DNA of 64,000 nucleotides from Nemertoderma westbladi (lineage: Eukaryota; Animalia; Xenacoelomorpha), in contig JAUCBJ010008796.1 in NCBI GenBank assembly GCA_032718475.1, forward strand, positions 33,253 to 97,252, in the 5' to 3' direction. Shown piece by piece: positions 2,733 through 36,477 of this stretch (the first letter of the stretch is position 1; every line of letters begins with the position of its first letter). The position numbers and the translations under genes are program-made. Below the pieces are notes generated by a model that was given only the letters and a program-made list of their open reading frames with translations, did not search any database and had not been told where the DNA came from.

Positions 2733-5700
2733 GCGAGCGACCCAAGATAATTATGCGGGATACGCCAGGGAAGAATTAATGTCTATTGTCGAGTCACAAT
2801 GGAACTTTCCCGGACTCGGACTCCCGTTGGACCTGTCCGAGGCTACTTGGGAAGATATACACAGGATGGGAGTGGCAAAAGATACAATGGATCCAGCTGT
2901 TTGGAAGAGGTCGGCATCAGGATATGTGCAGGGATTCTTCGGCTCCTTGGAGCGATTGGAAGAACAACTGTTTCGACAACCTCAAGGACCTCAAGAGCAG
3001 GAAGAGCTGCTATACCAAGTACGTGAAAGAACCCTACGCATACGACTAATCCTCTCAGCCTTTGAGGAAACTTCCAAAAGAAGACAGGACACGTCGCTGC
3101 AGGTTGCTGTCAAAACTTGGTTACATCGGGTAGATCTCCAAGTACAGGAAACGGCCCAGTGGAAATCCCAGCTGGCTGAGAGATCAACCTATGAAGAACA
3201 AACTGATGTCACCCTTTCTCAAGCGGAAAGCGAAGAGACCGCCGAGAAACCGCGAACTAGAGACGCTATCGACATTTATTTGTCCGACTATCAGCGATTC
3301 CTAGGAGACGAAGAGTTGAGTAGACGGCTGTCTGGACTTTCCCCTAATAGTGAAGGAACCAAGCTTGTGTTGGACTCAATCGATGCCGAAATGTTAGCTG
3401 CAAACCAAGCTGAATGTGATGAAAAACTCCGCCTCACTAGAGTCCGAGAAGAACAAGTAAAGAAAGAATGGATAGAGAAAAGAAAGGTGGCAGCAGCAGC
3501 GGCGGCAGAAGCAGAAGCCAAAAGAAAGGCGGCAGAAGCAGAAGCCGAAAGAAAGGCGGCAGAAGCAGAAGCCGAAAGAAAGTCAGCAGAAGCAGAAGCC
3601 GAAGCCGAAAGAAAGGCGGCAGAAGCAGAAGCAGAAAGAAAAGCAGCAGTGGCAGAAGCAGAAAGTAGAGCTTCTGAGGAGACTATCCAATTGGAGTTGA
3701 AAAATCTGCAAGAGACGCAAGACAGTATAAATAAACAGTTTACTGCTAATCAAATGCAGATGATGAGAAAATCTACTCCCAAGCGCCAGGGATACACATC
3801 CTCGGAGGAAGGCGAGACTACCGATCCTGAAGGCGGAGGAAATAGATCTCATCTAAGTAGGCGTAGAAAAACATCTTACCGCCGCAAATTGCCTGATTTG
3901 CCCCCAGCTGTTAGAAGACAGCTAGCTAGCACAGACTTGAGTAGTATAGAACCCACAGCCCAAAGTATTAAGGTCCAAAGACTCTCTACAATAGTTGATG
4001 AGCCTGAGATAATTAGGCCTGTCGTTCCCAAGGTCACTTCTGTGTTAGAGACCCCTGTACTTCCAGAGCTTAACTCTAAATTCCCTTTACATAGTACTAC
4101 ACTGCCTGTACCCGGTGGAACAGTCCAAGAGAATATCCCTGTCCAGATAGCAGAGAGAGAAATCAAAAATTTGTCTCCCGTCGTCCCGCGTCAGCCCGCT
4201 ACTATGTTGGCGACTCCCGCTTCGGCGGTTGAGTGGGTGGAAGAGGGACGGCGGGGGATGAATCTCCTGCTAGGACAAATGCAGGAGACTGTCCACCAAC
4301 TTAAGGGAACAGTGAGAGAAGGCAGAGCAGAGTTGCAAGAAGTGCAGCAAAGTATCGCACTAGAACGCGATAAATTAGTCAATATACAAAGGGGCATACC
4401 AATACCCCCTGTAACATTGTGTCAACCTGTTAGGTCTGAAGTATTACATGCGCAAGGTGTGGAGCCTACACGCATCTATACTGCTAGTGAAGTTGAAACT
4501 CCTATAACAAACCCTATTAAGGGTGATTATAGACCTGTTATTAATGATATTCCCTATAGACCTGATAATGATCCGAGAAATTTATATACCGATAATTCGA
4601 TATTAAATAACACGATGGCCCAAGAAAGCTTTACGCGTCAGATGGCTAGAACAGAAGCCCGCCAAGCGGTCAAAGTGGGAGAGATCGTCAAATTCAATGG
4701 AGATGAGATGAAATGGTTACCTTTCAACGAATATTACAAAGATAGCATACAGAACTCTGTACTATCTAACGGAGAGAAACTTAGATTCCTCATCAAGTGC
4801 TTGGAAGGACCTCCCAAGTTAATGGCGTTAAAGTTTATTGGACATCCAGATGGGTTAAGACAAGTTTGGGATACATTAAACATCAGGTATGGTAACAAGG
4901 ATAACATAGCTAAGTATTTGTATGCAAAATTAGTAGCCCCTCGACACTTCCTTAGTAGCGGGATTATAGAGTTTTCCGATGAGATTCAAGAGATCTGTAG
5001 ACAATTGGACTGGTTAGGTAAGTCTCATGAATATCAGAGTTCCATGGTTATTGGAGCCGTAGTCTCTACTTTACCAAAGGGTGGAGTATGTACACGCTGG
5101 GACAAGAAAGTGTTGTACATGAATGAACAACAACGACGAAGTCCTACCATGGCTGATCTCATGTCTTTCTTAGATGGTGAAGTCAAACTACAACTCATCA
5201 AGCAGTCCAGAGAAAAAACATCGGAAAATAAGGTAAGTGAGAAACCCACTTCTAGGAGAAGGGTAACACCGGTGTGTTACACTGACGACGGCGAAAGCCA
5301 AGCTTCTCAAGAAGAAGACAGCGGGAAAGACACCGAACGTTCTTACTATGTTGACAAAACCTCCAAGGACGTAAGTAAATACAAGGCTCGAACCAACAAT
5401 AGGAGAGAACAGGTTGCTAAGACCCCTCCTCAGTCTCCTAGCAGAATGCGCGGAAGAAAGCCCGAAGAAAGAACGAGAGTGCATCAGACTACCCAAGGTA
5501 AAGTAAGTAACATAAAACCTAACTGTGCGCTGTGCGACGGGACCCACCGTTTGAGTGCGTGTGCGGAATTTCTAAAGAAATCCCTTGTAGACAGACGTAC
5601 AGTTGTGTGGGACAAGCGGTTATGCTATAATTGCCTCAGACCAGGACACCAACGGCGAACCTGTTACTCCGACATAAAGTGTGAAAAGTGTGGTGCGAAA

Positions 5701-8700
5701 CATCACATCTTGTTACATAGTGAGTTCGAACGAGACAAGCAGAGTCAGGTAAGTGAGTCCGAACTACATGTCCAATTCAGTGATGTAAACGACACTGATC
5801 AGGAGTCTGAGATGGAAGGGTTCTATACTGACGAATTCTCCGACGCCAATGAATCCTGTTATCTAATAAATACCGCGGTGTATCGAGCACTTACTTACGA
5901 AAAGGACATCAACGATGAGTTTTCCCCAACTAATTTCGCCAAACAACCATCTTGGAAAGCTCCAGCTTCCAACGTAGGAATCAGAGAATTTCCTGTAGTT
6001 CAGGTAAGAGTTCACGGTCTTAACAAAAGCTACATAGTGAATGCCCTCCTGGACTCCGGCAGCACAGGAACATTCATCGATCAAGAACTAGCCGAAGATA
6101 TCTTTGCTGGACAACCCAAGTTCCGGACTAAATTGAATATGTCAGGAATTATGCAGGTTTGGAAATCTACCCTAACGGCAGATTACTATGTAGGTGTGTT
6201 GTCCACCCCCCAGGATAAGTTAGGAACACAAGGCATAAGGTCAGTAAAAATGGTGGCTATAAAGAACTTTGCTACTACTCAAGCAGACCTTTATAATTGG
6301 GACGAAGATGAGAGCGTCCAACATCTGAAGATACCTCGATTCCAGACAGATTATCCTGGAGTGCAAATACTTATCGGCCAAAACGCGCACGAGGCGCTCG
6401 AAACATTAGAGAAACGGCCTGCTCAACCACAACCACTGCAAACCTATGCGGTAAGAACTAGAGTAGGTTGGTACTTTACTGGCCCTTCCCGTAGAACTCT
6501 CGAAGAGAGAATGCCACACGAACAAATATATCAAGGAAGTGATTGGGAAGTGGAAAGCAGTGAGGTGGACGAACTAACTGAGGGAACACCATACTCCTCA
6601 GATAATGACGACATCTACCAACTCTTCGAAGAAGAGAACACAATTGACCTACTTACAGAGAATCAAACTTGGAAAAACCAAACGAACCTATGTCAACTGA
6701 TTCGCCCAACGGAATCCATTATTTATAATGACGAACTTAATGACGAGGTAGAGCGCTACAACGCTAGAACTCGGGACGAACTCGCCGTACGATTCTTTAC
6801 CCAAGAATTAGTAGAACCCAATTCATACGACAAAGCCCTGTCAATAGAAGAAGAAAGAGCCAAGCAAATCCAGGAAACAACCACACGTTTTTTAAAAGAT
6901 CAAGGTAGATATGAAATCGGACTACCCTTCCGAAAACGTGAACCCAGATTTATAAATAACAGACCCTTGGCTGAGAAAAGAATCAATCAATTACATCGAC
7001 GTCTTACGGCAAACACTTCAGCTAAGGAAATGTACCAAACTCAGTTGAAGAAATTTATCACAAAGGGATATGCGGAGCGAGTACCGGAAGGAACTCCAAT
7101 AACTGAAAGAACTTATTATCTAACACATCATTACGTTCCCAAGCCCGGTAAACCCCATGAAGTACGAGTCGTATTCGATGGCTCTGCTCTATATATGGGC
7201 CAATCCCTTAATTCCGAGTTGTTACCAGGACCCAATTTACTACAATCTTTGTTGGGAATACTTTTGAGATTAAGACAATATTCCATCGCGTTCGCTTCTG
7301 ATATCGAAGGAATGTTCTTACAAGTCAAGGCGCTGGAGAGAGATAGAGACATCCTGAGATTTCTGTGGTGGCCTGAAGGAGACCTCAACCAGAAACCGGT
7401 GGAGTACTGGATGACCATCCAGGCTTTTGGGATCATATCTAGCCCTTCCAATGCCTGCTCCGTGGTGCGAACCACTGCGAATGACAACCGAGACTCCTTC
7501 TCCAAAGAAGTGATAGACAACATAAAACGCAATATATACATGGACGACAATTTAAGGTCCCTTCCATCAGTAGAAGAAGCCATAGCTGTCGCGAAAGGAA
7601 CGGTAGAGTGTTTGAAAAGAGGTGGATTTCGACTGACGAAATTCACTAGTAACTCCCGTGAGTTTCTGGAAGCCATACCGGTAGAGGATCGCGGAGCGAA
7701 AGACCTAGACTTAATAAAAGACGATCTTCCTGAAACCAAGACGCTAGGCTTGAAGTGGGACACGGAAAGAGATATCCTGTTTTTTCAGCTAAAACAGCGA
7801 GATAATCCAGTTCGGACCAAACGGATTTGTTTAAGTATCCTGAGCACTTATTTCGACCCATTGGGATTTATTAGCCCAGTTATATTGATTGCTCGGAGTT
7901 TAGTACAACAAATGTGGCTTGAAAACCACTCGTGGGACGATCCCCTCAAGGGAGAATTATTAAAGAAATGGATGAAATGGGAGGACTCGCTACCTGCTAT
8001 CGAGAACTTTATAATTTCCCGTTCATATTTTGGTCATGTTCTCCCTACGTATTCCTATCAACTCCATGTATTTGGAGATGCCAGCGATATGGGAATCGGT
8101 ATAGTAGCATACCTGCGAGTCGAAACTCCGGATGGAATCAAAGTTGCCTTGGTTACCTCTAAGGCATTGATTAACAACAAGCTTAAGGTTCCTCGGGCGG
8201 AGTTAAAAGCAGCCTTATACGCTACAGCTATCGGCCGGAATGTAACGGAACAGATCGATTATCCACTGGAGAAAACTGTTTATTGGACCGACGCTTTACT
8301 TGTGTTGGAATATATAACCAATGAAGTCTGTCAGTTCAGCGTCTTTGTTACTAACAGAGTGGCCATTATTCTTAGTCGCACAACGATAGATCAATGGAGA
8401 CATTGCCCTGGTACGATTAACCCAGCTGACATCGCCTCCAGAGGAGCAACTCAACAGGAACTGATAGATACCCCTGACTGGTTGTGTGGACCCGACTTCC
8501 TGAGCAAGGAAGAGGATGAATGGCCTCCTCACCTTACTACGGCTGAGATTAGACAAGCCAAGGGAGCGGAGAAAGTCAAACCCAAAATTAGAACAAGTAA
8601 ATCGAAATTATTTAAACCGACAATCGATCTATCTGTATTACATACTGCCGAAAACGATACTTCGGATCCACAATCCCTCGCCACAAACAAGTCTGTTGTG

Positions 8701-10359
8701 GAAATTAGAGACAGAGATTGGAAATCTGAGATACCAGATGTCTCGCAAGGAATCTCACCCCTGCTGCAGAGAGCACTGCATCATTACAGTTCCTGGAATC
8801 GTCTCTGTAAAGCCATCACATACTTAAAGAGATGTTTTCACCATCATTACTCCAGGAAGCAGACCACTAGTGATCCTGCTCCAGTAACATCTGCGCAAGT
8901 TTATGTTATTAAAGATCTACCGAAGTACAAGATATCAGACCGGTTTCTAAAGGAGAAGATCAGTTACCAGGAGCATGAAGAAACTAATAAGCAGCTACTG
9001 AGACTCCTGCAATGCTATGAGGATTCCGATAGGTACTTTCTGTTGTTGAGAAATCCGCAGATGCGCTTAAGGGATCGCTTCTCTAGCACAATGATAGATG
9101 GGTTAATACGTGTTGGAGGAAGGCTTACAAACGCCCCATTATCCTTTGATACTAAATTCCCTATACTCATTAGTAATCTTGAAGTACAAATCAAGATGAT
9201 TGTAGATGTTCACAGTAAACTGTATCATGCTGGTAGAGAACGAGTTCTTAGCGAAATTCGAACCCGCTATTATTTTCATAAACCGCGTAGAGCTCTGAAT
9301 CAAGTTCTTAGGAACTGCATACCTTGTAGGAAAGTATTCAGTAGGCCTTTAACACAGCGAGAGGCAGAATTACCTATGGAACGAGTAAGCTTTTATGAAC
9401 CACCCTTTACTAATACTGGTGTGGATTTATTTGGCCCTATTGAAGTGTATCGTGCTAGAACTATAATCAAGAGATGGTGTGTAATCTTTGTCTGCATGAC
9501 TTGTAGAGCTATCCATCTCGATATGGTGAACGATCTATCTACTAACAGCTTCGTCTTATGTTTACGACGACAGATCGCTCGTTTCGGCACTAGCAATACG
9601 ATGAGATCCGATAAGGGAACGAACTTCATTGGTGCCAACAACGAAATTCAGGCTTACGTAAAGGACTGGAATCAAAGACAGGTGGACGACCAGCTACGGA
9701 TAACGGCGTCTAGCTGGACCTTTAACGCCGCCGACGCCCCTTGGTGGGGAGGAAGTTGGGAGAGATTAATTCGAAGTGTCAAGACCACATTTCACTTTAT
9801 AGTGCCGTGCCGCGCATATCTCACCGACGAACTTCTACGGACGTTAATGGAGGAAATCGCTGCCTATCTTAACGAGAGACCGCTTATGCCAGTCTCATCG
9901 AGTCCCGACTCCCTGGAAGCGCTAACACCCGCGCACTTCCTACTTAAAAAACCTGTAGCCATGCTCCCACAATCCGAGATTGCCGATGGGGATGAATACT
10001 GTCGTCGAACTTGGCAGCTTATGCAGTTGCTATCCCGTCGTTTCGCTGACCATTTTGAGAAACATTATCTGCCCACGCTACAACTTCGAACTAAGTGGTT
10101 TGCGCAGCAGGAAAATGTCAGCGCCGGAGACATGGTCCTTATTGTAGATCCGGACCTTCCACGTAGACGGTGGCAGATCGGTCGTATCATCGAGACGCAC
10201 ATCTCGGAGGATGGTCTAGTGCGCTCAGTAGAACTCGTCGTAATGCGGCGTAATTTCAAGAAACCCGGTACCCAAGGAGGTGAGGTCTCTATAGGGGTGC
10301 CGGGAACAGGCGGCGGTGGACTCGTGAGGGTCTGGGGGCACGTTAAATCTTTCTTATAG
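2698..10359 (+). CDS. Bel/Pao Gag-Pol polyprotein (coiled coil, DUF1759-like gag, zinc knuckles, aspartic protease, RT, RNase H, integrase); the final 27 or so codons come from an insertion
   Basis: EAERKAA repeats; KFNGDEMKW gag motif (~4690); CALCDGTHRLSAC, CYNCLRPGHQRRTC and CEKCGAKHHILLH (5524-5718); ALLDSGS (~6043); YMDD (7537); FGDAS (8071); NPADIASRG; H-x4-H...CIPC; GVDLFGP, SDKGTNF and WERLI integrase core. The track starts at GTG; the first ATG is at 2779. Confidence 0.96.
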   Translation: MEEHQADWARNKRATQDNYAGYAREELMSIVESQWNFPGLGLPLDLSEATWEDIHRMGVAKDTMDPAVWKRSASGYVQGFFGSLERLEEQLFRQPQGPQEQEELLYQVRERTLRIRLILSAFEETSKRRQDTSLQVAVKTWLHRVDLQVQETAQWKSQLAERSTYEEQTDVTLSQAESEETAEKPRTRDAIDIYLSDYQRFLGDEELSRRLSGLSPNSEGTKLVLDSIDAEMLAANQAECDEKLRLTRVREEQVKKEWIEKRKVAAAAAAEAEAKRKAAEAEAERKAAEAEAERKSAEAEAEAERKAAEAEAERKAAVAEAESRASEETIQLELKNLQETQDSINKQFTANQMQMMRKSTPKRQGYTSSEEGETTDPEGGGNRSHLSRRRKTSYRRKLPDLPPAVRRQLASTDLSSIEPTAQSIKVQRLSTIVDEPEIIRPVVPKVTSVLETPVLPELNSKFPLHSTTLPVPGGTVQENIPVQIAEREIKNLSPVVPRQPATMLATPASAVEWVEEGRRGMNLLLGQMQETVHQLKGTVREGRAELQEVQQSIALERDKLVNIQRGIPIPPVTLCQPVRSEVLHAQGVEPTRIYTASEVETPITNPIKGDYRPVINDIPYRPDNDPRNLYTDNSILNNTMAQESFTRQMARTEARQAVKVGEIVKFNGDEMKWLPFNEYYKDSIQNSVLSNGEKLRFLIKCLEGPPKLMALKFIGHPDGLRQVWDTLNIRYGNKDNIAKYLYAKLVAPRHFLSSGIIEFSDEIQEICRQLDWLGKSHEYQSSMVIGAVVSTLPKGGVCTRWDKKVLYMNEQQRRSPTMADLMSFLDGEVKLQLIKQSREKTSENKVSEKPTSRRRVTPVCYTDDGESQASQEEDSGKDTERSYYVDKTSKDVSKYKARTNNRREQVAKTPPQSPSRMRGRKPEERTRVHQTTQGKVSNIKPNCALCDGTHRLSACAEFLKKSLVDRRTVVWDKRLCYNCLRPGHQRRTCYSDIKCEKCGAKHHILLHSEFERDKQSQVSESELHVQFSDVNDTDQESEMEGFYTDEFSDANESCYLINTAVYRALTYEKDINDEFSPTNFAKQPSWKAPASNVGIREFPVVQVRVHGLNKSYIVNALLDSGSTGTFIDQELAEDIFAGQPKFRTKLNMSGIMQVWKSTLTADYYVGVLSTPQDKLGTQGIRSVKMVAIKNFATTQADLYNWDEDESVQHLKIPRFQTDYPGVQILIGQNAHEALETLEKRPAQPQPLQTYAVRTRVGWYFTGPSRRTLEERMPHEQIYQGSDWEVESSEVDELTEGTPYSSDNDDIYQLFEEENTIDLLTENQTWKNQTNLCQLIRPTESIIYNDELNDEVERYNARTRDELAVRFFTQELVEPNSYDKALSIEEERAKQIQETTTRFLKDQGRYEIGLPFRKREPRFINNRPLAEKRINQLHRRLTANTSAKEMYQTQLKKFITKGYAERVPEGTPITERTYYLTHHYVPKPGKPHEVRVVFDGSALYMGQSLNSELLPGPNLLQSLLGILLRLRQYSIAFASDIEGMFLQVKALERDRDILRFLWWPEGDLNQKPVEYWMTIQAFGIISSPSNACSVVRTTANDNRDSFSKEVIDNIKRNIYMDDNLRSLPSVEEAIAVAKGTVECLKRGGFRLTKFTSNSREFLEAIPVEDRGAKDLDLIKDDLPETKTLGLKWDTERDILFFQLKQRDNPVRTKRICLSILSTYFDPLGFISPVILIARSLVQQMWLENHSWDDPLKGELLKKWMKWEDSLPAIENFIISRSYFGHVLPTYSYQLHVFGDASDMGIGIVAYLRVETPDGIKVALVTSKALINNKLKVPRAELKAALYATAIGRNVTEQIDYPLEKTVYWTDALLVLEYITNEVCQFSVFVTNRVAIILSRTTIDQWRHCPGTINPADIASRGATQQELIDTPDWLCGPDFLSKEEDEWPPHLTTAEIRQAKGAEKVKPKIRTSKSKLFKPTIDLSVLHTAENDTSDPQSLATNKSVVEIRDRDWKSEIPDVSQGISPLLQRALHHYSSWNRLCKAITYLKRCFHHHYSRKQTTSDPAPVTSAQVYVIKDLPKYKISDRFLKEKISYQEHEETNKQLLRLLQCYEDSDRYFLLLRNPQMRLRDRFSSTMIDGLIRVGGRLTNAPLSFDTKFPILISNLEVQIKMIVDVHSKLYHAGRERVLSEIRTRYYFHKPRRALNQVLRNCIPCRKVFSRPLTQREAELPMERVSFYEPPFTNTGVDLFGPIEVYRARTIIKRWCVIFVCMTCRAIHLDMVNDLSTNSFVLCLRRQIARFGTSNTMRSDKGTNFIGANNEIQAYVKDWNQRQVDDQLRITASSWTFNAADAPWWGGSWERLIRSVKTTFHFIVPCRAYLTDELLRTLMEEIAAYLNERPLMPVSSSPDSLEALTPAHFLLKKPVAMLPQSEIADGDEYCRRTWQLMQLLSRRFADHFEKHYLPTLQLRTKWFAQQENVSAGDMVLIVDPDLPRRRWQIGRIIETHISEDGLVRSVELVVMRRNFKKPGTQGGEVSIGVPGTGGGGLVRVWGHVKSFL

Positions 10360-11536
10360 TGCAAGGGAGTTACTGAAGGCCCTCGTGTCTTGCGAACCAT
10401 GAATTGACATGGTGCCGTGGTACCGTCTTGTCGGCCTGTTGCCGTACTGCCAGTCCTGTACACAGTAGGGGTGGTGACTTAGTGTGATCTGTGGTTTATG
10501 TGGTTTATTTGGTAGGTCTATGTTTGGTATGTATGAGTTGACCAGACTCTGTACTGTCTCTGATTGGTTGCCAAAACGTGTTTTTTCCCAGGGTAGCACT
10601 ATTGGAATGGAGGTGTTGCATCGGAATGGACAGGTTCTGATGATTCTGTTGGTACTACTATTGGAATGGAGGTGGCACCCGGAATATCGGCTGCAAGGAG
10701 GGGTTGGTGTTGTAGTGTGGTCCGAGTGAATGATACTCTGGAATCTGTGGTTTGTGTGTGTACGTGGTATACGTGAGTGTATGTATGGCCACTGCGAGTG
10801 GGTATGGGAACCCTTACCGGTTGGTTCAGTCGCCGCTGGTTATTAGTAGGACAATATTTTACTGCGCCCCAGCATACTTTGTGCACACAAAGTTATTTTA
10901 CCCTGTCGGTAAAATAAGGTACTCTAGACTCTTTATCAGTCTATACAATTTTGTCCCCTCTGATTTTGTCACCGATTTTGTCCTCCCCGATTATGTCCTC
11001 TGTGTGTGCGTGGTATGCGTCAGATTGGTGTTTACCTTTTGTGTACTTGATTATCGAACATCTGTTGAGTACACGTGTACAGTGACTGGTAAGTGGTTAC
11101 TTGTTCCTAGCTTTCGAGCTAGTCAGTATTGTTTGCGGAACCGACTTCCCCTCAATACTGCCGGCGAGGCGGGTGAAAACGTGTCAAAATTCCAATGTGG
11201 GTAGCGCAAGCCCGCTTGGGACAAGACCGTCGGTTTGGCTCAAGGGCGACCTTGATGCTCGATCGCTATCGACTGGTCCACCCGCCGGTTGACTCTCTGA
11301 GTTGGCTCAATGTACAGTCAGGCCACAGCAAGTTGACAGTAGCCGACCATCTGGCTACACCGACGAGTTGTGCCGGTGTGATCGGGGGATTGAAAAGTGA
11401 ACCCGGGAAGCATCGGGCTACCCTCCGGCCCGGTCTGATAAAAACATCAGTCGGACTGGCCCCAAGGGTGGTGGGACAGCGTCCGCCTCATGGGTGCGCC
11501 TCGGAGTCATCAGAGAGGAGCCCAGAAGGACGCAAG
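10277..11536. mobile_element. 1260-bp insertion in the integrase C-terminus; possibly a terminal-repeat remnant of a tyrosine-recombinase (Ngaro/PAT-like) retroelement
   Basis: Pol similarity stops after KKPGTQ and resumes in the same frame at 11537. Both junctions read ac(c/g)caag. The GC-rich 3' part has many hairpins. The family assignment is from recall only. Confidence 0.6.
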
Positions 11537-11691
11537 CGATAATCTTTGAGACGCAACAACTCAATCGCCCAGTTGGTCGTTTATGTTTACTGGAAAGAGA
11601 CAGAGAACTCTCTGGAAACTATGGAAGACAAGACACTCTTCCCTCGACCACCTCCCTAATTCCTCAAACATCTAGGGACTCCCAAACGTGA
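11537..11691 (+). CDS. Displaced true C-terminus of the Bel/Pao integrase
   Basis: Reads AIIFETQQLNRPVGRLCLLE..., matching the typical Bel/Pao end motif RPxxKLxxL, in the same frame as gag-pol. Confidence 0.85.
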
Positions 11692-12239
11692 TACGTCTGG
11701 AGTGGGTGTATGACTATGTTATTTATCTATTTTATTACATTTTATATGCGAACTTTATTATGTACTTTATTATAATCGTTTTTATTCAATTTTATTTAGT
11801 GGAATGTTATTTTAGGGATTATTTGGTAGATTAGTGCAATATATTAGTGTTTATTACGTACATAATCACTTATAATATATATTTAGTGCGACGGCGGGAA
11901 ATAATTATTTTTTCTCTTCCCTTACTGTCCGTATCATATTATAAATACGTGACTACAGTAAGATGAAATGTCCGTACTTCTTAAAGTACAATAAAGCCAC
12001 TACTATATTTAAGTATTATTGGTAGGCAGAGTATTAGGAATGCAAAGTTCAGATCCTCGTGTCTCGGCTAAACCAAGCTCTGGGTAGACCTTGGAAACGA
12101 CTTGCCTCTTCACACTGACATTGCTTCGTGCGATATTGCTCTTCTACCTTATAACAAATAATACATATAGTAGCGTGATGTCCCTCTAACAGTAGCGTAA
12201 ATCGCAAATAAATCTGTTAAACTTTTTGACCATCTGTAA

Positions 12240-12510
12240 TTCTAGTCGATTAAGATATCGTGGCACCCACCGATATACTTGAAAGACAAATCCTAGAATC
12301 AGTGGTTAACGTCCCCAGACAAGTTCTGGAATAAATTGGTGCCCATCCTAAATATTAATTTAATATTTATTAAAATCTGTAAAATCCCGATCCTTTAAAA
12401 TTTTTAGTCAATTAAGATATCGCGCAGTATTTACCGATATTCTTAGAAGGACTATTTTATAGAATTAAGGATCCTAAGTCCCCAGATATGCTCTGGAATA
12501 AAATTTGTGT
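12240..12510 (+). repeat. Diverged ~110-bp direct repeat pair in the pol-ORF2 spacer
   Basis: The pattern tagtc.attaagatatcg...accgatat...gtccccaga....tctggaataaa occurs at ~12243-12335 and ~12405-12502. Confidence 0.8.
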
Positions 12511-13129
12511 CAATTTAACATCAAATAATAAAATTCACGGGAATAAATTTAAATTCATATTCAAATGAATTTCATAAATTGTCATTTTGCGCAATTTATA
12601 ACATTCCCAAAATTCCAGTAATTAATAGATCATGGGAGCGGAGATTCATATTGAGTGTACTAGAGTGCGAGAATCTCCAACATATAGTCAATAGCCGATA
12701 AAATTTATAAAATCATGCATAAAGAGGATATTGACAATTAAAGAATTACTATTAAATAACATCCCAGATCTGTATGCATGAGAATTCCCCTAATTCTACC
12801 GCTAGTTTTCCATAATGTCACCATGGCAACACCCACGCTAGAATTAGAAGCAAGTTAAAGGAACAATAAAAAGCTTACCCCATTGCGTAGCATAAGAGTA
12901 TACATAACGCACTATTAGTATCCAAGGATACATAGTAATAACGTGACATTCTGGAAGACACTGACTAACGGACAAATGGCATGCATGTGTGCAGTAAGCA
13001 ATGATTGTATGGAATTTGTGCGTTTATAGGTGAATGTTACTACTAAAGTGTGTTTACAGTAGCTAATCGCAATTGTAAAGTAGCCCTAACTCTACCGAGA
13101 TAACCTCAAGTGGATTCAAGCCTTGGGGA

Positions 13130-13272
13130 CGGACAGTGGTGGGACTTGTGCCGGTTATCGTTGTCGTGCTGTTGCTACATGTTGGCATAAACACTGCGAC
13201 AACGGTACATCGGCGCTGAGAAACCCACTGTCCGGGGGCAAAGCCTAGTAGGCAGCGACGCCCGCTTGCCTA
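13130..13272 (+). promoter_or_regulatory. Long RNA hairpin plus a small hairpin immediately upstream of ORF2
   Basis: Nested stems cggacagtgg/ccactgtccg, gtgccggt/atcggcgc and tatcgttgtcgt/gcgacaacggta, with G-U pairs favouring the + strand. A second hairpin taggcagcg/cgcttgccta lies at 13249-13272. Confidence 0.7.
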
Positions 13273-13315
13273 AAATATTAACTCATATTGATATTAATAA
13301 ACTCAGATAACAGAT

Positions 13316-16300
13316 ATGACGGAATTGATAGAAGATGACCTTGGTATCAGGGAGCGATATACTCTACCTTTACAAGCGTTTGTGGATAGCTTGATACGCG
13401 GTGAAGCCGATCCGACTATTACGGAGGACGATGGTCGTTATATCGAACCGCCGATGTCCCAGGAACAACTTACGCGTGAATTGGACTATAGAAAATTCAC
13501 CGCTCGCTATACGAATCGTAATGGTACGTATATGGACTTCTTAACTACCGGCCATCCTACCGATTTAAATGATACGGAAGATGTAGACACCGAAAGGGAA
13601 ATGGTTTTATTTAAATATCATGCCCAGCGGAATCGTAATGATAAACCGAGAATAGAACACGAGAACTCTATTCGCAACCTACTCGACAGAGAAAACGTTG
13701 AAGAACCCGATAAGCGCCTCAACTTCAACGACTACTTGGAATTTTTGAGAGAAACCTATCTCAATATTGCCAGTCAACAGAACCTAGAGACTCGATATCC
13801 TCAAGGTATACATCACGATCCCATAGTAGAACTCAAACGACTCTATTTCACCATGATGTATCTTACCGCAGATCGTCCACTGCCTGTTGTCCCGGACAGC
13901 TTTGAACAAATGGAAGAGTATTGCAAAACTGGAGAACGATCACCAGCGTTTCCTCTGCAGGACGTACGTCTTTGGTATTATTGTGACTCATGTCCTAGAC
14001 CTAACCAGCAAACGGAAAGACATAAACATCCGCGGAGACGTTGTGCTAAACACAGTTTTACGCGTTATACTTACGGGAGTTTCGAGCGAAACCTGTTCGA
14101 CGTATCACCTACGATCGCCCGTCTAAAACGATCGCTAAATAAACCTATGATCAGAGTTCCGGAATACTCGGTCAGGCCTCCCCATTTCCCCGTGAGACCT
14201 CAAACTCTTGATCCTAACAGTATCACTGATCCTCCCGAGTTATACTCACTGTTCAAAGATTTGGTGTTACCCGAGCAGTTAATCGGTGGTGTTCCAGCGG
14301 TAGGTTCGTTAGATATTCGACCATCCTATTTAACCGGATTGGGACGCGGGCATCTAACATCGCCATTTAATCCTTACAATCGACCAGGATTAACTCCGAT
14401 ACAACCTGCCACGGAAATCGAGGAGAGTGTCATCAGAAACGCTTTAGACGCCATCCGACAGAAAATCGGAAAGGGAACCCAGGATTTTCTAGAGAAACGT
14501 AAATTACAGCAGCAGGTCCAATCGGTGAAAGAGTTAGCCTTGCCGCAGTTTGATAGAGAAATCCAAAACCTCGAAGAGGACATCGAGCTTGGACATACGT
14601 ATTCTCTACAGGAGTTTCTAGAAGAACGCTTACAGAAACAAGCGGAGGAAAATCAACTAGAGGAGAAACATACGGAAATGGATGAGAGAGAGGAAGCCGC
14701 TTTAGCCCAACCCGAAGCTCAGATACTCATAACCGATCTCTACTCTAAAACCGTCCGTCATCCCTCGATGGTTCCGCATTTCGGAGACAAACTTTTCGCA
14801 AAGATACAACCTCAACCGGTTGATATCGGCATAAGGTCGCAAAATCTTATCGCTGACGCTCCTATGTTACAGCGTCCGCCAATCGAGGCCGCTCGAGTTG
14901 ACGGTATACTCGTTGAACCTCCGGACAATCGAGCGGATCTTGTCCGTCGTATGGTACACGATGTCAACATACGCGCTAGACCTTTACAGAACTCTTTTTA
15001 TGGAATTAAAGATCACCCTTATTACGTTAATCTGACTCAATATTATATGGTAAAACCAGAAGATCCGACGCATAATTTAAAGTTTCTACCACTAATAAAT
15101 CCTCTGGACATTGTCGAACTCGAACAATTGCAAAAACATCTGGATCAGTTAGTAAAGGTAAACTCATTTCGAAAACCATATAACGTTTCTCGAATAGAGA
15201 AGGATACAGAACCTCCTTATAATCTCGATGGATTTATTAAAACTCGATTAGTCCATTGGAATCTAGACGTAATATTCGAGGAGGAGAAAATACAAAGATA
15301 TGGAAATGTGGAGACGTATACCACTCGATACATGAAGTATAGTGATCTCCCTGACGCTAATCAATGCGCCACCTTGTGGCATCCAGTAGGGATGACCCTC
15401 GAGAACGCCACCAAAGAGTGGAATGAAACTCTTAATATCATTGAGATGTATGGCGTTGTTACTTACGATAACGAAGGTAGCATTCCAATCGGAGAATTAG
15501 GAACTACGCGCATGATACACATACGCGGATTAGCTGGTTCCACTCACGTGTTTACGCGAGCGTGTTCCGACGTGGTCGATTATTCCTTTGAAACTCTCAC
15601 CGAAACGCAAAAGAATCTCCGACATGGACAATTCGAACTCGCGCAGCGTTACGTCATTGACACCGAACGCAAACCGGCCATGGGTATCGATGGATCGATG
15701 TTACCCCAGCCCGTTCTCGAGATGTTATTCAACGAAAGAATCATTAAAATCGGCTCAGCTGTTTACGGGGATCTCCAAAACGACTTTCGGAATATGGAAA
15801 ATATCCCCTATCCTTTCGTGGATACTCAGCTGATAGCTCCTTGGGCCGAAGGCCGAGGTTTCTTTCGCACCATGTATGCTAATGCGTCTAGCAACGTTAC
15901 AAAGGTGCAACGAACTTCCATCGGACATCTTGCCTTTCAGGAATACGGATGTAATTTCAAGGTCGGAAATCCCATCAACTATCAACAAGTATACGGAGAC
16001 CATTATTCTCGATTATACTTTGACGGACCGTTGACCGCACCTGGCGCCGTGTATAGCTTCATGAGTGTTCCACTCCGTCCCTCCTTAGCTATCTACACGA
16101 TCTTCGAAAACACCGCACTTTCCGGTTGGCTAGCCGATGTGTGCAGTCGTACTATACGCGCCCATCCATTAATCCTTGGGACCAAACTCGCTAAGCTAGA
16201 TGAACATAATAAATTCATCCGCTTTGAATGTTTCCGACGGTTTTTAACCCCGTTTCGCAACGTGGATAGCCAATTCAAAGACCGCGCTTTGACCAAGCTC

Positions 16301-17569
16301 AGCTTAAGAGACTCGGCTGCGGAGAAGTTAGATAGCGCTGGATTTGCTATTTTCAAAGACGTTTGTATAATAAACCTGCACTCCTCGGTTATCCAAAGAC
16401 CTCGGATCCCCACAGGTTATTCTGTCGTGGAAATTCAGACGGTAGGTCCACTTGAGGAGACGGCCATGCCTACCTCAACTATACAAGGGGAAGACGAACC
16501 CATATGTTTAGAATCTGAAGAGATTCAGCCCCCCACGTCTCGGAGTAGCGATAGCGACTACATATTGGAATGGTATCAAGGTCCACAGTGTCTTACTGCG
16601 TATGATTATCGCCATGCCAATTATGTTTCTCGACAACGTTGTCGGCTGTGCGCATCGAGAGACCATATTACGTCTATGGACACCAACGATCTCTGTTCCT
16701 ATTTCCACGAGCAACCGTCGATGGAAATCTATTGTGCATATTGTCGGCTTAATAATTTGCATATTTTTGCTGTCTGCCCCCAATTTATGACTCAATGCCA
16801 TCATTGTCAATTAAAAGGACACGCCAGCTTTGATTGTCCATTTAATCATGATTTAGAGAGCGTAGATGAAATGATTGTACTACGTTATATCAGAGCTTGG
16901 GAAGCGAACGCTGATTTACATTGTGATTCACGCCATCGCTATTACCCTGGACGCGCTTACGAAGGAGTTTATGCGTTCCATCCTTATTTGTTTGCCTCCG
17001 TCGAGCAGAAATCACGCCTATCAAGTTATGAACTACTGAAGCGCGTTGGAGAATGTATTTCAACCAAATATGTACGCAAATTTCTCAGGAGCATTAATCC
17101 GAGTGACATCAATTCTTACAACTTAATAAACTTTATCCGTCAAGATCCGGACTATGGAGACTTATTTGTCAACTCATACCCCGAGTTACAGGAAGTGTAT
17201 CGACGGCCTTACGAGTATCGAGCCCGCGAACGCGAGTTGGAAAGAACCATTAAACCAAGGAAGTTTCTAACTACCTATGGTCCACCCACGGCCCTCGTTC
17301 AGACCACTCGTAAAGGACCCGTAAGAGCGGCTGTCTTGAAACGAGCTCTCAAAGCCGTTAGACCCCTCTCCCCGGACGTTGATGTCAATCGACCCGGTAC
17401 TTCGACCGGCGGATATACCGATCGTAATCCCATACCTTCTGATGCAATCATATTGCACCCTTCACCCAGGAGTTATAGCCCTCCTTGTAAAGTGGCTCGC
17501 CCCAAAGAGAAAAGGACTCTTGCTAGCTTTAAAAAACTGCGTAAACGCCGTCCGCGCAAGAAAGACTAA
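13316..17569 (+). CDS. Retrotransposon accessory ORF2: DEDDy-like 3'-5' exonuclease domain, three CCHC-type zinc knuckles, N-terminal Cys/His motif, basic C-terminal tail
   Basis: Uninterrupted 1417 aa inside the LTRs. ExoI VVTYDNEG (D718/E720); LPQPVLEMLFNERIIKIGSAVYGDL (ExoII D819); FVDTQ; SIGHLA; PLRPSLAIYTIFE (Y927/E931, ExoIII-like). Knuckles CRLCASRDH..C, CAYCRLNNLHIFAVC and CHHCQLKGHASFDC; ends KKLRKRRPRKKD. Confidence 0.85.
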   Translation: MTELIEDDLGIRERYTLPLQAFVDSLIRGEADPTITEDDGRYIEPPMSQEQLTRELDYRKFTARYTNRNGTYMDFLTTGHPTDLNDTEDVDTEREMVLFKYHAQRNRNDKPRIEHENSIRNLLDRENVEEPDKRLNFNDYLEFLRETYLNIASQQNLETRYPQGIHHDPIVELKRLYFTMMYLTADRPLPVVPDSFEQMEEYCKTGERSPAFPLQDVRLWYYCDSCPRPNQQTERHKHPRRRCAKHSFTRYTYGSFERNLFDVSPTIARLKRSLNKPMIRVPEYSVRPPHFPVRPQTLDPNSITDPPELYSLFKDLVLPEQLIGGVPAVGSLDIRPSYLTGLGRGHLTSPFNPYNRPGLTPIQPATEIEESVIRNALDAIRQKIGKGTQDFLEKRKLQQQVQSVKELALPQFDREIQNLEEDIELGHTYSLQEFLEERLQKQAEENQLEEKHTEMDEREEAALAQPEAQILITDLYSKTVRHPSMVPHFGDKLFAKIQPQPVDIGIRSQNLIADAPMLQRPPIEAARVDGILVEPPDNRADLVRRMVHDVNIRARPLQNSFYGIKDHPYYVNLTQYYMVKPEDPTHNLKFLPLINPLDIVELEQLQKHLDQLVKVNSFRKPYNVSRIEKDTEPPYNLDGFIKTRLVHWNLDVIFEEEKIQRYGNVETYTTRYMKYSDLPDANQCATLWHPVGMTLENATKEWNETLNIIEMYGVVTYDNEGSIPIGELGTTRMIHIRGLAGSTHVFTRACSDVVDYSFETLTETQKNLRHGQFELAQRYVIDTERKPAMGIDGSMLPQPVLEMLFNERIIKIGSAVYGDLQNDFRNMENIPYPFVDTQLIAPWAEGRGFFRTMYANASSNVTKVQRTSIGHLAFQEYGCNFKVGNPINYQQVYGDHYSRLYFDGPLTAPGAVYSFMSVPLRPSLAIYTIFENTALSGWLADVCSRTIRAHPLILGTKLAKLDEHNKFIRFECFRRFLTPFRNVDSQFKDRALTKLSLRDSAAEKLDSAGFAIFKDVCIINLHSSVIQRPRIPTGYSVVEIQTVGPLEETAMPTSTIQGEDEPICLESEEIQPPTSRSSDSDYILEWYQGPQCLTAYDYRHANYVSRQRCRLCASRDHITSMDTNDLCSYFHEQPSMEIYCAYCRLNNLHIFAVCPQFMTQCHHCQLKGHASFDCPFNHDLESVDEMIVLRYIRAWEANADLHCDSRHRYYPGRAYEGVYAFHPYLFASVEQKSRLSSYELLKRVGECISTKYVRKFLRSINPSDINSYNLINFIRQDPDYGDLFVNSYPELQEVYRRPYEYRARERELERTIKPRKFLTTYGPPTALVQTTRKGPVRAAVLKRALKAVRPLSPDVDVNRPGTSTGGYTDRNPIPSDAIILHPSPRSYSPPCKVARPKEKRTLASFKKLRKRRPRKKD

Positions 17570-17639: not shown

Positions 17640-17647
17640 GGGAGCGG
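17640..17647 (+). promoter_or_regulatory. Short polypurine tract
   Basis: gggagcgg directly precedes the TGT start of the 3' LTR. Confidence 0.6.
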
Positions 17648-18858
17648 TGTAAAAGCTTTTGTGGGATAACTGATTCGTTTGCCTTGCTGGCCAGTTCCCC
17701 CCCGGTCGCTAGAATACTCTAAAAGGGATCTATAGGTAAAATAGTGCAAGCTACCAGCTTATTGGCTGATGTGCTGTACTGAGGTATCTGGGTTCCGTTT
17801 AATCGGCCAACCAGCTTAGAGAGGTTGCCTTAGCCCTGCTGTCCGTATCGGCCAATAGAATTTGAGTGGGCGTTGATTTCGACCTATCCCAGAGCTACTG
17901 AACTGAATTTTCCTATCTCACTGCTCATCCTCTGTGTTGGACGGGAGCTTCGGGGAATAAGGGTAGTTGGTATCCTCGTATAGGGATTCTAGTCTTATGA
18001 TTCTTCATATGATTCTGTTGTTGTGTTCCCATTTTTCGCCATAACACCGGCTTTTGGGAAGAACTCTAGTAAAACTGCTTAAATTATCGAAGGTATAAAC
18101 TGTTATCCTATCAACCTACCATCCTACCTACTAATCAATCAATCAACCTGATTCTGTTGCTAATCATATTGTTTGTACTGTTATTTACCGTCAGTTATTA
18201 ATTGTATCTATTTGTTGATGGAAATATTGCTCTTTGGAGAATACGGATAAATCACCCAAATTTCCCAATTTTCTTGATACACTACAGGTTAGAGAGACAG
18301 GCTATATATAACAATTGCGATTTATATTAATGTGGTGTGTATTGAATCTAATGTTATTTAGCAGACCCTACATGAGTCAATTGCTGCTCTCTTTATGTGT
18401 GATCAAATTTACTGACGGTCGGCAGAATAGTGTGCATGATTGTAATTGATAACAAAGTATTTCCTAAAGAATACGCTTTATACTTTAATCATAAGCAGTA
18501 TCGTTGCGTTTAGTATAAGTCCTAGTCCTGTTTAAATAGATAGAGCGCCACGTCCTAAAGGAACTGTTAATATTTCCCGAAAGCCAATAATATCTGTCAG
18601 AAATTAATTAATAACGATCAATCGAATAATACAGTAAGTTTACACTGCAACCTTACACTGCAATAATAAAATTTAAGCAGCCGAATTCAGCCTCCCGGGT
18701 GTAGATCCATCGGGTGAATGATCGCGCATGGGCTGTCTTCGGGTAATGTTTTGTTTAATAGCATAAAATATTGTCGTATGCTAAAGGTGTTTTAATTAAC
18801 TAGAAGACATATAAATTTTGGCAGGTTGAACTGCTAAAGGTCTTCAAAAGCGCGAACA
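17648..18858 (+). repeat. 3' LTR (1211 bp)
   Basis: Termini TGTaaaaGCTTTTG ... CAAAAGCgcgaACA form an imperfect inverted repeat. The end matches bases 1-30. CCAAT-like boxes at ~17761 and ~17852; AATAAA at 18665. Confidence 0.85.
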
Positions 18859-20078: not shown

Positions 20079-20673
20079 GGGTATAACTTTTCGCCGTATC
20101 CGTATCCGTATGCATTTGCCGTATCCGTATGTACATACGCGTATGTGCCGTATGTAATGGATTCCTATGGAGAATAATCCGTATGTGATTTTAGAGATTA
20201 GGCATTGCGGACCAGTAAGAAGTGCACAACACACATGCAGACTGAAGACAGGTAGGCCTACTTAAAGCTAAGTGATTTAAAGAGTGTGGCTGCCGCTACC
20301 TTATGTCAGCGAGTGCAACTGGGTGCCAGTAATTAATCTAAGTCCAACCGGGCGGCCAGGTGTCAGTTTGTACAATAAAACAAGCGCTGTGGCGCATCCC
20401 GGGACTGAAGGACATCATCTGTCACTCATCCTGGACCTACAATGTTTAGTTGACGTAAGGTAGCCACACTCTTTAAATCACTTAGCTTTAAGTAGGCCTA
20501 CCTGTCTTCAGTCTGCATGTGTGTTGTGCACTTCTTACTGGTCCGCAATGCCTAATCTTTAAAATCACATACGGATTATTCTCCATAGGAATCCATTACA
20601 TACGCACATATCCGTATGTGCATACGGATACGGCAAATGCATACGGATACGGATATGGCGAAAAGTTATACCC
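20079..20673. mobile_element. MITE with ~230-bp terminal inverted repeats
   Basis: gggtataacttttcgcc... is inverted to ...ggcgaaaagttataccc; flanked on both sides by tgataga(t), a 7-8 bp TSD-like sequence. Confidence 0.9.
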
Positions 20674-21489: not shown

Positions 21490-22990
21490 TAATCATGGCA
21501 CATCAACATTTTTATTTATAAAGGCAGTGAATTACAAAATATGTTTGTATTTTGCCTTTAAATGTAAGTCAAGGGCAGACTTAAACTCCCCATCCTGAGT
21601 AAAAAAAGCCGGTAATATACGTATTCCCCTGTAATTGTTGCACATAGCCCTACTACCCCTCTTAAAAATATTAATTAAACGAGACTTAGACCATTCAGAA
21701 GGATAAACAGCACTCGAGAATACAAGAATAAATAATGCTGTGATATATATTAACCACTGGATAGGTAGAAAACGTAGAAACCCTGGTGCGTATCCATCCG
21801 GCCCACTACCCGTACCACTCTGGTGCGTATCCGTCCGGCCCACTACCTGTACCACTACCCAGCCCACTACCCGGCCCACTCTGGTGCGTATCCGTCCGGC
21901 CCACTACCCGTACCACTCTGGTGCGTATCCGTCCGGCCCACTACCCGTACCACTCTGGTGCGTATCCGTCCGGCCCACTACCCGTACCACTACCCAGCCC
22001 ACTACCCGGCCCACTCTGGTGTGTATCCGTCCGGCCCACTACCCGTACCACTCTGGTGCGTATCCGTCCGGCCCACTACCCGTACCACTACCCGGCCCAC
22101 TACCGGCCCACTCTGGTGCGTATCCGTCCGGCCCACTACCCGTACCGCTCTGGTGCGTATCCATCCGGCCCACTACCCATACCGCTCTGGTGCGTATCCA
22201 TCCGGCCCACTACCCGTACCACTCTGGTGCGTATCCATCCGGCCCACTTCCCGTACCACTCTTAATTTTCCCTACTGCCTCAGTTAGCTCGCCGACTGTA
22301 ATATAATCGTCAAGGCATGGAATATATGGCAAGGGTGACGCATCTCGGTCGAGATGGATATGGTCTATGTCTGGTTGAGTGACGTTCAAGACTTTCTCAT
22401 AGTGTAATTTAAACTCCTCATCACTCAGTTGAATCTCAGACGCAGTTGTACCATCCTGGAGACTGCCCCTCCAGTTGATAGCACTCCAGCAGCGTTATCC
22501 TTCTATAGCAACTGAGTCCACCTGTTATGTGAGTCTCGCGAACCTCCAGCCATCGAGCTGACTTGAGCAGATTCAGCAAAATTATACTTGACTTAGAAGC
22601 AGATTTATACAGAGAGTTAGTAATAGACTCAATGGTTGCATCAACACTGGCTTCCTGTGGCACAGATATTGCAGTCGACTCCTATACACTTGATTGGTTT
22701 ATTACCCATAACCAGAGTGTGCATGCGCAAGCTACAGGCAAACTCATGATGACTACCCAACTCTACACCATGCCCATATATATATATTCGCCAACCATTG
22801 TATCTGCTAAGAGTGTTGCTACCAGGCGGGGATGGTTGGATGGGATTCTCCGGTCAGTTATCACTTTGACAGCCTGTGAAAAATCCAAGCACTCTGGTGA
22901 AGTAATACACAGATCGATTTCTGATATCCATACTTCACGCTGTCTAAAAGTAAGACCGGTACTGAGACAACCCATTTCTATAACTAAATG
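21490..22990 (-). mobile_element. Degenerate non-LTR retrotransposon fragment (end of APE endonuclease and start of RT)
   Basis: SEIDLC...PSNH endonuclease end; YPSEWSKSRLINIFKRG...NNYRGI RT N-terminal motif; interrupted by a minisatellite. Confidence 0.75.
21783..22262 (+). repeat. GC-rich minisatellite, ~37-bp unit
   Basis: ctggtgcgtatccgtccggcccactacccgtaccact repeated about 11 times with variant subunits. Confidence 0.95.
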
Positions 22991-29700: not shown

Positions 29701-31640
29701 GAGGCAATGTTTCATCAAGTGCGAGCCTGCAAGGCTGATCAGGACAGCCTCAGATTTCTCTGGTATGAGAACGAAGACTTATCAGGTCCAGTGGTTACAT
29801 ACCAGATGTATGTTAGGATATTCAGTGCTCGCAACAGCCCAAACGGCATATTATTTGTTCTAAAGAAGACCGCAATGGCCCAAATTGGGAATTATCCGGC
29901 TGATGTCATTGAGTCGATCCTTAAGAACTTCTATATGGATGACGGATTAGTTTCCACGATTCGTAGATTAACTAATATATATAAAGTAACCGAAGTTATT
30001 TATATATTGGAGGATATTTAAAGGACAATAATGAAGGGATATATCCCTGAAGAGCCATGGAGAAGGTGAACCACAAAGGAGGATGCAGCACTGCCATTCG
30101 CCCGCCATGGCAACATTTATTACCATCAGCGATCTGTGGTGGAGCTAAACACAGAAATAAACACAATTATGACAAGGGTATGAGAAAGGAGAGGTTAAAG
30201 GCGGTGGAAGATAGGATGGAAGTGTTGAGGCGGGAGTATAGAAGTCAATATCCGTATGATTTCACTGCAGATATATATGATATAAGCGTAAACCCTGGTG
30301 AAGAGATTGCAAAGATGTATCATATGAACATGTTCTTATCACATGATGAACCCTTATCTGCCATAAGTGACCATTTCGATGGAATGCATTTGTATAGAAG
30401 GACGCGATGAGATGACGAGGAAATGCCAAAGGTCTTTAGCGTGTATAAATTGTTCTATAAGTGCTGTGAATGCATGAACAAACAAGATGTTTCCATTCGT
30501 GATTGTGTGAATGAAGAAAGACCCGACCCAATATTGACACGGTGTAAAGCACATCAATTCCTCAGGAACAACAAAGGAGGATATTCAATGAGTAATCCGA
30601 TGATAACCATAGATTTCAGCAGAAAGAAGCCACCAGCGCCTATTACACCAAGGATTACGACTCCGGATCCTTATAGTGAGATTGGAACTCGTACTACTTC
30701 TGCTTTAGTGGAAATGACTGCTGCCATGTTGCTTTATCGAGCGTATAAAGATTTGGAGGCGCAACGCGAAGCTGCACAGGACTCGGGAACATAACCCACG
30801 GGTTGGGAACTCTCGAGTCCTTGGTCAACTTTCGATCCACAACCTCCAGATAGAAAGCTCACGCATGAGCATCAGGATGAGATAGAGGCATTACAGCAAG
30901 AAGAACAAGCGGTGAAGGTGAAAAAGCTTTTCAAGAAACGATTAGTCGAGTACAACAGGAATGCAGAGAGACGCCAAGGAGAGGTAGTGAGAGTCATGGG
31001 GTTCGTCCCACAAGCTATATCTCAACCTAAACCAACGCCAATGGAGAAGGATGGAGGAGTCGTTGGAGGATTGGAAATTAATGTTCTATGATAATGAAGG
31101 AGGGTCACACCAGGAATGTTTGACCAGCAAGTGTATCCAGATCTGGGTGGCCGATGGTGTAACTCATGTGTTCATGCGCATGAGGGCGGACGGAGATAGA
31201 CCAGAGCTGATTATAACGACCCAATAAAGAAGGGGAAAGGACCCGAGAGAGCAGATTTTGAAAGTGTGTAGACGCGGAGGGATGCATGGAGCAGAGAGGA
31301 TAGATGCGAGGATGTTGCCTAAGAAGGTTAGGGAGGCGATATTAAACCAGGATTATGTGAAGGTAGAATCAGGTGTCCAGAGCGATTTGGAGAGCGATTT
31401 TAACGCTATGGAGGACCCGGAAGACCGGCTACCGAGACCCTTCGTCAACACAAAACTATTATTGTTATGGTCGCAGGATGTTAGGATATACAGGGAATAT
31501 CCTATGTCAGCTAAGACTGGTATGGGTGTTTTATAGCGCACCCATTATATAATTGGGATTTTAAATTAAAGCCGCAGAAGAAGTATGAGGAGGCATATGG
31601 TAAGAATACAGCTACATCAACGATTAAATTAGAGCCCTTT
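26741..31640 (+). mobile_element. Degenerate, internally deleted second Bel/Pao element with an ORF2 homologue
   Basis: Coiled-coil and gag fragments (KFMGNHKHWRKF...EKLNYL); RT fragment YLPHH...KVRIVND...DIEAMF...FYMDD (29233-29950); then an abrupt junction to ORF2-like sequence. Many stops and frameshifts; LTRs not recognised. Confidence 0.88.
30180..31640 (+). pseudogene. Pseudogenised homologue of the exonuclease ORF2
   Basis: NPGEEIAKMYHMNMFLSHDEPL, LFYKCCEC..RCKAHQF, FYDNEG (31084-31101), GVTHVF and IDARMLPKKVREAILNQDYVKVESGVQSDLESDFNAME..PFVNT align in order to ORF2 at 13316-17569. Confidence 0.85.
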
Positions 31641-36440: not shown

Positions 36441-36477
36441 TAAAGAATCTCTCCATAATATAGAGTCTCTTGAATCA

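Follow-up and report, generated by a model that had tools for sequence, protein, structure and literature searches.

The stretch of DNA analysed here, 64,000 nucleotides (nt) of Nemertoderma westbladi (GenBank assembly GCA_032718475.1, contig JAUCBJ010008796.1, positions 33,253 to 97,252 of the forward strand; hereafter the window), contains a BEL/Pao long terminal repeat (LTR) retrotransposon. The third open reading frame (ORF) of this element, ORF3, is a family-wide gene under purifying selection, and its product very probably contains, at amino acids (aa) 700-945, a domain with the RNase D/DEDDy (DnaQ-like) fold. As a tentative overall interpretation, to which we give well under an even chance, we propose that a giant, self-priming BEL/Pao lineage encodes an RNA 3'-5' exonuclease from the Egalitarian/EXD1/RNase D branch, which actively suppresses silencing by PIWI-interacting RNAs (piRNAs). 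If this is true, an animal retrotransposon would carry a counter-defence enzyme in the slot usually occupied by env.

ORF3 (13316-17569; this and the other features of the element and of its relative in the window are on the + strand) consists of 1417 codons without a stop and is flanked by pol and the 3' LTR, as stated in a preliminary description of the stretch, whose motifs were all found in place. The ExoI motif YDNEG occupies aa 717-721 (D718/E720, 15467-15475). It is followed by IKIG at aa 810, the ExoII residue D819 (15770-15772), FVDT at 834 and, at 926-931, the ExoIII-like IYTIFE (Y927...E931, 16094-16108). These blocks lie in the putative exonuclease domain (15413-16150), which is suggested by several sequence-profile comparisons. 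Closer to the N-terminus, a CxxC at aa 223 with a CxxH at 243 belongs to an unnamed domain (aa 168-300, 13817-14215), which is common to a second BEL/Pao family in the window (BLASTP pair, E 1e-6 and 3e-4) and for which no Pfam family was found. Motif search located three CCHC-type zinc knuckles at aa 1109-1174 (16640-16837), starting at 1109, 1140 and 1161; their presence agrees with the earlier description, but only knuckle 3 has the canonical spacing CX2CX4HX4C, knuckle 2 being CX2CX6HX4C and knuckle 1 CX2CX4HX9C. An origin of these knuckles by duplication from Gag was rejected, as BLASTP gave no match at E<1. The protein ends in a basic tail (KKLRKRRPRKKD, 17498-17566) resembling a nuclear localization signal. 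No signal peptide or transmembrane (TM) anchor was evident by hydropathy, a dedicated signal-peptide predictor not being part of the analysis. Because the highest 19-residue Kyte-Doolittle mean was only 1.36, ORF3 was rejected as an env gene, in line with the absence of a TM helix noted before. GC content at third codon positions is equal in ORF3 and gag-pol (0.43 each).

A relative of ORF3 was found in the window itself. The decayed second BEL/Pao family (27945-29955) is represented by a gag piece (DUF1759, E 9e-4) and a reverse transcriptase (RT) piece 38% identical to that of the first element. It is followed, at 30051-31601, by a decayed ORF3 homologue which comprises the N-terminal domain (matching aa 168-300) and the ExoI-ExoII region, contains stops and ends before ExoIII. 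In a tblastn search of the window, 31036-31542 matched ORF3 with 29% identity over 174 aa (E 7e-14), and YDNEG, D819 and D823 were retained. As the homologue lies downstream of the gag and RT remains of the second family, ORF3 either predates the split of the families or passed between them. The sole match in a HMMER search of 1.84 billion representatives was P0003, a 648-aa protein from ENA (E 7e-7, 32%), which shares the layout of nuclease blocks, three knuckles and a terminal basic run. Its knuckle score was 67, against a shuffle mean of 32, and was reached by none of 1000 shuffles. All three sequences, about 30% identical, retain D718, E720 and D819. Of the 19 acidic residues aligned between the two window families, by contrast, no more than 8 are identical. 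YxxxE931 is conserved in ORF3 and P0003. Atlas leads for P0003, to be taken as leads only, were PF01612+CCHC (0.86) and EXD1-like piRNA proteins (0.77). Word-based protein searches with ORF3 gave no further relative, and neither did DNA-level scans of contigs from metagenomes, viruses and genomes; one plasmid match was dismissed as chance. There was no rotifer sequence among the matches of the protein searches.

The fold assignment is suggested by sequence signals which are individually weak yet concordant, with no single strong test among them. The NCBIfam RNase D model TIGR01388 matched aa 798-843 of ORF3 with E 0.0016, far below the family cut-off. In hhalign comparisons over ExoI and ExoII with 40 bacterial PF01612 domains (selected from about 150 matches so as to span the WRN-like, NrnC-like, RNase D and Pol I types), the ORF3/P0003 pair reached a probability of 78% and P0003 alone 90%, while the best of 60 column shuffles reached 2.7%. 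The probability was lower for the WRN-like set (17%) than for this mixed set. With a profile of the three sequences, the sole PDB match at E<=10 was E. coli RNase D (E 1.4); single-sequence searches and a MAFFT pair profile returned no nuclease among their PDB matches. By Atlas features, PF01612 clusters made up 25 of the 30 hits of ORF3 (0.92; 167 shared features, just below the 170 mark). The ExoII block was the top-scoring segment in both ORF3 and P0003, and its score was reached by 0 of 100 shuffles. In ORF3 it is of the K-I/V-G type, as it is in the 17 bacterial domains of WRN-like type that were compared. The ExoI block scored above shuffles in P0003 only (2 of 100 reached it), and the placement of ExoI and ExoIII in ORF3 is suggested by conservation in the two homologues together with spacing. 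The ExoI D-x-E is YDNE in both window families, and IDVE of P0003 aligns to the family FDTE. IDTE (aa 781-784) was considered as an alternative ExoI; its score equalled that of YDNE, but it was discarded because it lies too near ExoII and the second family lacks it. For ExoIII, the pattern L-x6-Y-x3-[DE], chosen after the data had been seen, was present in 34 of the 40 references and occurred once in ORF3, at 920-931, in a position matching P0003.

Several results weigh against this assignment. Taken alone, ORF3 reached just 7.6% in hhalign, and its ExoI block was not significant against shuffles; the ExoIII block did not score above shuffles in ORF3 or in P0003. The two ExoI blocks were paired with 14 of 25 gap settings but not in the MAFFT alignment. 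ORF3, its nuclease domain included, had no significant Pfam match, an in-house hidden Markov model scored it no higher than shuffles, and two AlphaFold models, built without an alignment, had predicted local distance difference test (pLDDT) values of 28 and 34. Instead of the canonical ExoIII Y-x3-D, ORF3 and P0003 have Y-x3-E, with Glu at a position where 40 of 40 bacterial PF01612 members have Asp; the preliminary description had rightly pointed to this substitution. Large insertions separate the blocks, the ExoI-ExoII spacing being 101 against 57-69 in the references and the ExoII-ExoIII spacing 112 against 69-77. Domain-family scans of ORF3 gave no HRDC match, and a PHROGs search one weak unnamed match. 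The domain would thus be a non-canonical member of the DEDDy type, a DEDE variant. Despite the replacement of the ExoIII Asp by Glu, we regard residual activity as marginally favoured.

Depth and variants were taken from four sequencing runs (X1, X3 and X4 among them); the stretch is present in six runs from four studies, of which the best-matching run may be the one from which the window itself derives. Summed depth was high across all 29 bins within the element, ORF3 included, and fell about 200- to 500-fold after 18858 (runs X1 and X3); in X3, single ORF3 contigs had depths of 4,900-14,000 as compared to 28.8 for the flank contig. This high depth relative to the flank points to a large multi-copy family, although depth is not a copy number. 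Ungapped contigs diverged by 11-15% cover parts of ORF3, and none of the 15 listed joints among contigs (of 120) deletes ORF3 entirely. Depth, copy variants and the second-family homologue led us to reject the possibility that ORF3 is a single-copy passenger; it recurs in numerous copies and also in a second BEL/Pao family, so that this test set by the earlier description came out in its favour. Truncated forms also exist. A single deep contig (2918) of run X4 joins 13678 and 16488 and represents an abundant derivative without ORF3 aa 122-1058, and other derivatives omit parts of pol (6611-8387, 8574-11554).

Selection was assessed from the differences in the nuclease region (15380-16240). Among the 40 best-supported of 166, 33 were synonymous and 7 non-synonymous, while the mutation spectrum predicts a synonymous share of 31.6% (p 5e-11); because these variants are the best supported of a longer set, the comparison is not a formal dN/dS (ratio of non-synonymous to synonymous rates). 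The 35 of them with an X1 share <0.95 comprised 32 synonymous and 3 non-synonymous changes, the five near-fixed ones 1 and 4. None of the 40 hits codons 718, 720, 819 or 931, and there is no insertion or deletion (indel) among them. Over the whole element, 12 listed indels (of 189) were distributed as 10 in non-coding DNA, 2 adjacent ones in pol and 0 in ORF3. One observation points the other way: in the variant table of the whole element, 6 of the 8 listed ORF3 differences were non-synonymous. All eight have an X1 share of at least 0.84 and we read them as drift of this particular copy. Purifying selection across copies, which had been called for in the preliminary description, was thus borne out.

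The element itself measures approximately 20 kb if the 5' LTR is assumed to equal the 3' LTR in size, whereas the usual length of BEL/Pao elements is 4.2-10 kb (accessible text of PMC3118150). Of the 5' LTR, the window includes just the final 30 nt (1-30); they match 18829-18858 at 100%, with no further LTR copy in between, which places ORF3 inside the LTR pair. The 3' LTR (17648-18858) is about 1.2 kb long; its 3' end is defined by this match, and its start is deduced from a TGT at 17648 and the short purine-rich tract preceding it (17640-17647), a putative polypurine tract. Both LTRs end in AACA and would be of the TG...CA type. A 2526-aa Gag-Pol ORF (2779-10359) contains three Gag knuckles followed by protease (LLDSGS), RT (YMDD), RNase H (PF05380) and integrase, with motifs at aa 916, 949, 968, 1090, 1587, 1765 and 2216. 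Its Pfam matches were Peptidase_A17 (4e-36), DUF5641 and DUF1759, and it has the BEL/Pao markers PF05380, PF03564 and PF18701, the first of these accessions being the RNase H of the group in the accessible text of PMC3985635. Near its 3' end, pol is interrupted in this copy by a stretch (10269-11538, no strand assigned) that few copies share, with low depth at 10401-11050 and joints spanning it in X1, X3 and X4. A 151-aa frame (2277-2729), which overlaps the start of Gag-Pol and contains a 36-nt duplication, could mark the actual beginning of gag. The leader (31-2270) is non-coding and unusually long, and contains a 288-nt duplication (402-970) and short repeats. Flank contigs of X1 and X3 align from 18858 on and not to the LTR, although the orientation of the recorded coordinates is ambiguous; they may represent an empty-site allele and thus a recent insertion.

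No TGG or other tRNA-type primer site directly follows the 5' LTR, and no tRNA genes were found in the window. Instead, the primer-binding position (31-43) is the exact reverse complement of 18094-18106 in the LTR. This 13-nt match begins at the first base past the 5' LTR and is the longest among 2239 leader starts. A match of 13 nt was reached by 0 of 1600 spacer starts and 0 of 12000 flank starts, and 5 of 20000 Markov-simulated LTRs contained it; with one bulge it can be extended to 16 pairs. We regard it as a candidate self-priming signature like that of Tf1. In Tf1 and sushi the primer-binding position is likewise complementary to the element's own LTR, over 11 nt in Tf1 (accessible parts of PMC7175516, PMC4600332 and PMC6317226). 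Those elements are gypsy chromoviruses, and self-priming has also been proposed for some copia lineages, whereas the present one belongs to BEL/Pao and would form a loop of about 750 nt. Self-priming of BEL/Pao elements was not found in our literature searches, Repbase, Dfam and subscription journals being outside their scope. In the second family, whose LTR was not located, none of the 112 ACA sites upstream showed a self-priming match.

Exonuclease-type third genes have a precedent, which the preliminary description had mentioned and which is indeed published: in the accessible text of Rodriguez et al. 2017 (PMC5408684), ORF3 of the bdelloid rotifer elements Juno/Vesta and Athena/Terminon is an RNase D-like exonuclease encoded as a separate non-env ORF after pol. 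The acid tetrad is altered there too (DEED), and in both cases the exonuclease is predicted from sequence. The rotifer hosts are Ty3/gypsy or Penelope-like elements, and BEL/Pao is not mentioned in that text; the new part is therefore the BEL/Pao host, for which no exonuclease ORF was found in the same literature searches. Compared by description, the present ORF3 also differs in its length of 1417 aa, its N-terminal domain, its three knuckles (knuckles are mentioned for rotifer Gag and Pol only in the sections available) and the change at ExoIII. Selection on it is strong, in contrast to the neutrality reported for rotifer ORF3s, a result that concerns env- and GDSL-type ORFs; the primer table of that paper names Vesta1 and TelKA only. 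The closest layout is that of the trypanosome RNase D TbRND, in which a DEDD exonuclease domain precedes tandem CCHC knuckles; these attach to single-stranded RNA and enhance both RNA binding and cleavage (accessible text of PMC7797062). The highest-ranking Atlas cluster of P0003 (Euglenozoa, PF01612 + zf-CCHC) is probably TbRND. TbRND is, however, a cellular enzyme trimming mitochondrial guide RNAs, with four regular knuckles and a 28-aa linker, whereas ORF3 has three irregular knuckles about 160 aa downstream and a Glu in ExoIII, and belongs to a mobile element. Egalitarian and EXD1 resemble ORF3 in having a DEDDy domain with a D-x-E-G ExoI and serve RNA localisation and piRNA roles; they are host genes which bind RNA through other added surfaces, and catalysis is dispensable in the former and lost in the latter (bioRxiv 10.1101/2025.08.03.668247, as far as its accessible text goes). 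BEL/Pao elements with a third gene are known in the form of roo and mosquito elements with a Chuviridae-like glycoprotein, but their env-type products are membrane fusogens, whereas ORF3 has no TM helix (accessible parts of PMC13524379 and PMC3118150).

In the interpretation we favour, the exonuclease domain and the three knuckles of this conserved third gene would cooperate in trans on an RNA substrate, which the knuckles would hold in single-stranded form, as they do in TbRND. The protein would be expressed separately, might enter the nucleus by means of its basic tail, and would shorten or tie up host silencing RNAs. Because in TbRND, the closest layout, CCHC knuckles bind single-stranded RNA, RNA is by this analogy a quite probable substrate. 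Action in trans, possibly in the nucleus, would fit the separate ORF, the basic tail and the abundant derivative that has no nuclease. We favour a role directed at the host because DEDDy domains recur in unrelated elements, having been captured by rotifer gypsy and Athena elements (accessible text of PMC5408684) and by Dada elements, and because self-priming elsewhere needs no exonuclease. Overall, host piRNAs or small interfering RNAs, or the precursors of either, are a possible rather than a probable target. Two published observations argue against such a role. Methylation by Hen1 opposes Nibbler at piRNA 3' ends and would shield mature piRNAs (PMC4760310, accessible part), for which reason precursors or unmethylated intermediates would be the likelier substrates. 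Egalitarian keeps all five residues yet works without them (bioRxiv 10.1101/2025.08.03.668247, same sections). Of the interpretation given in the preliminary description, a selected non-env third gene with a DEDDy/RNase D-type domain and knuckles, together with the rotifer precedent, has stood, while catalysis and the roles suggested there are conjectural.

Egalitarian and EXD1 also suggest the most serious competitor, which we nevertheless consider unlikely: the ORF3 domain may be catalytically weak or dead and serve as an RNA-binding adaptor or decoy that localises, packages or shields element RNA, or competes with host piRNA factors. The ExoIII Asp to Glu change in both full-length members, the large insertions between the Exo blocks and the EXD1-like Atlas lead for P0003 are consistent with this. 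The change is conservative, however, and the retention of D718, E720 and D819 in three sequences, when less than half of the aligned acidic residues are identical, argues for activity. RNase D-type enzymes trim single-stranded 3' tails. An active enzyme might process RNA of the element itself. Once the self-primer loop had been cut, removal of the unpaired 3' tail as far as the 13-bp duplex would leave a flush 3'-OH for the RT. The missing tRNA-type site and the exact self-complement right after the LTR speak for such processing, and the self-priming signature gives primer processing, one of the roles suggested earlier, a concrete substrate. We rate it as rather improbable, since in Tf1 RNase H suffices to generate the primer (accessible text of PMC7175516) and the second family, as far as its ACA sites could be compared, has an ORF3 homologue and no self-complement.

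It is still less probable that ORF3 is a WRN-like DNA 3'-5' exonuclease which proofreads, or trims the ends of complementary DNA (cDNA) prior to integration, and proofreading is the least likely of the roles suggested in the preliminary description. The K-I/V-G ExoII, the 20-kb genome and the Dada elements, which also carry an exonuclease with a suggested proofreading or cDNA-trimming role (in the accessible part of the source), would fit a DNA enzyme, but ORF3 is not fused to RT, its retroviral-type knuckles and FVDTQ block indicate RNase D-type RNA enzymes, and the profile match to the WRN-like set was the weaker one. A similarly slim chance is given to a superficial DEDDy likeness, or to ORF3 as a passenger or separate nested element without a role for the retrotransposon. 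The low pLDDT values and the fact that no curated family reaches its cut-off are what such an ORF might show; purifying selection, the second family, the joints, none of those listed removing the whole of ORF3, and the concordance of several fold signals contradict it.

Additional genes in animal retrotransposons are nearly always interpreted as env, and ORF3 departs from this. A DEDDy-type third gene in two distant BEL/Pao families widens the rotifer finding to a further superfamily and contributes evidence of selection, for which the rotifer study, in its accessible text, did not test its own DEDDy ORFs. With ORF3, a single expressible protein is available with which to examine whether transposons of animals encode enzymes directed against silencing by small RNAs, and the self-complementary primer site is another testable deviation from the BEL/Pao cycle of the textbooks.

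The remainder of the window contains other mobile DNA. Decayed pieces of endonuclease and RT resembling long interspersed nuclear elements were found at 32712-36172, 60441-61439 and 62549-62968 (RVT_1 match for 60441-61397), and a short frame at 32140-32253 gave a weak fibrinogen C-terminal match (E 0.007, below the cut-off). Repeats at 20079-20673, 21780-22262 and 36459-46395 include a 216-nt inverted repeat pair resembling a miniature inverted-repeat transposable element, a 37-nt tandem array and the GGGACCGAATTGTC family in inverted arrangement. An uninterrupted ORF of 1303 aa (48833-52744) encodes an Ulp1-type protease (PF02902, 3e-12) together with an RT, and probably belongs to a non-LTR element resembling those of the CRE/NeSL clade.

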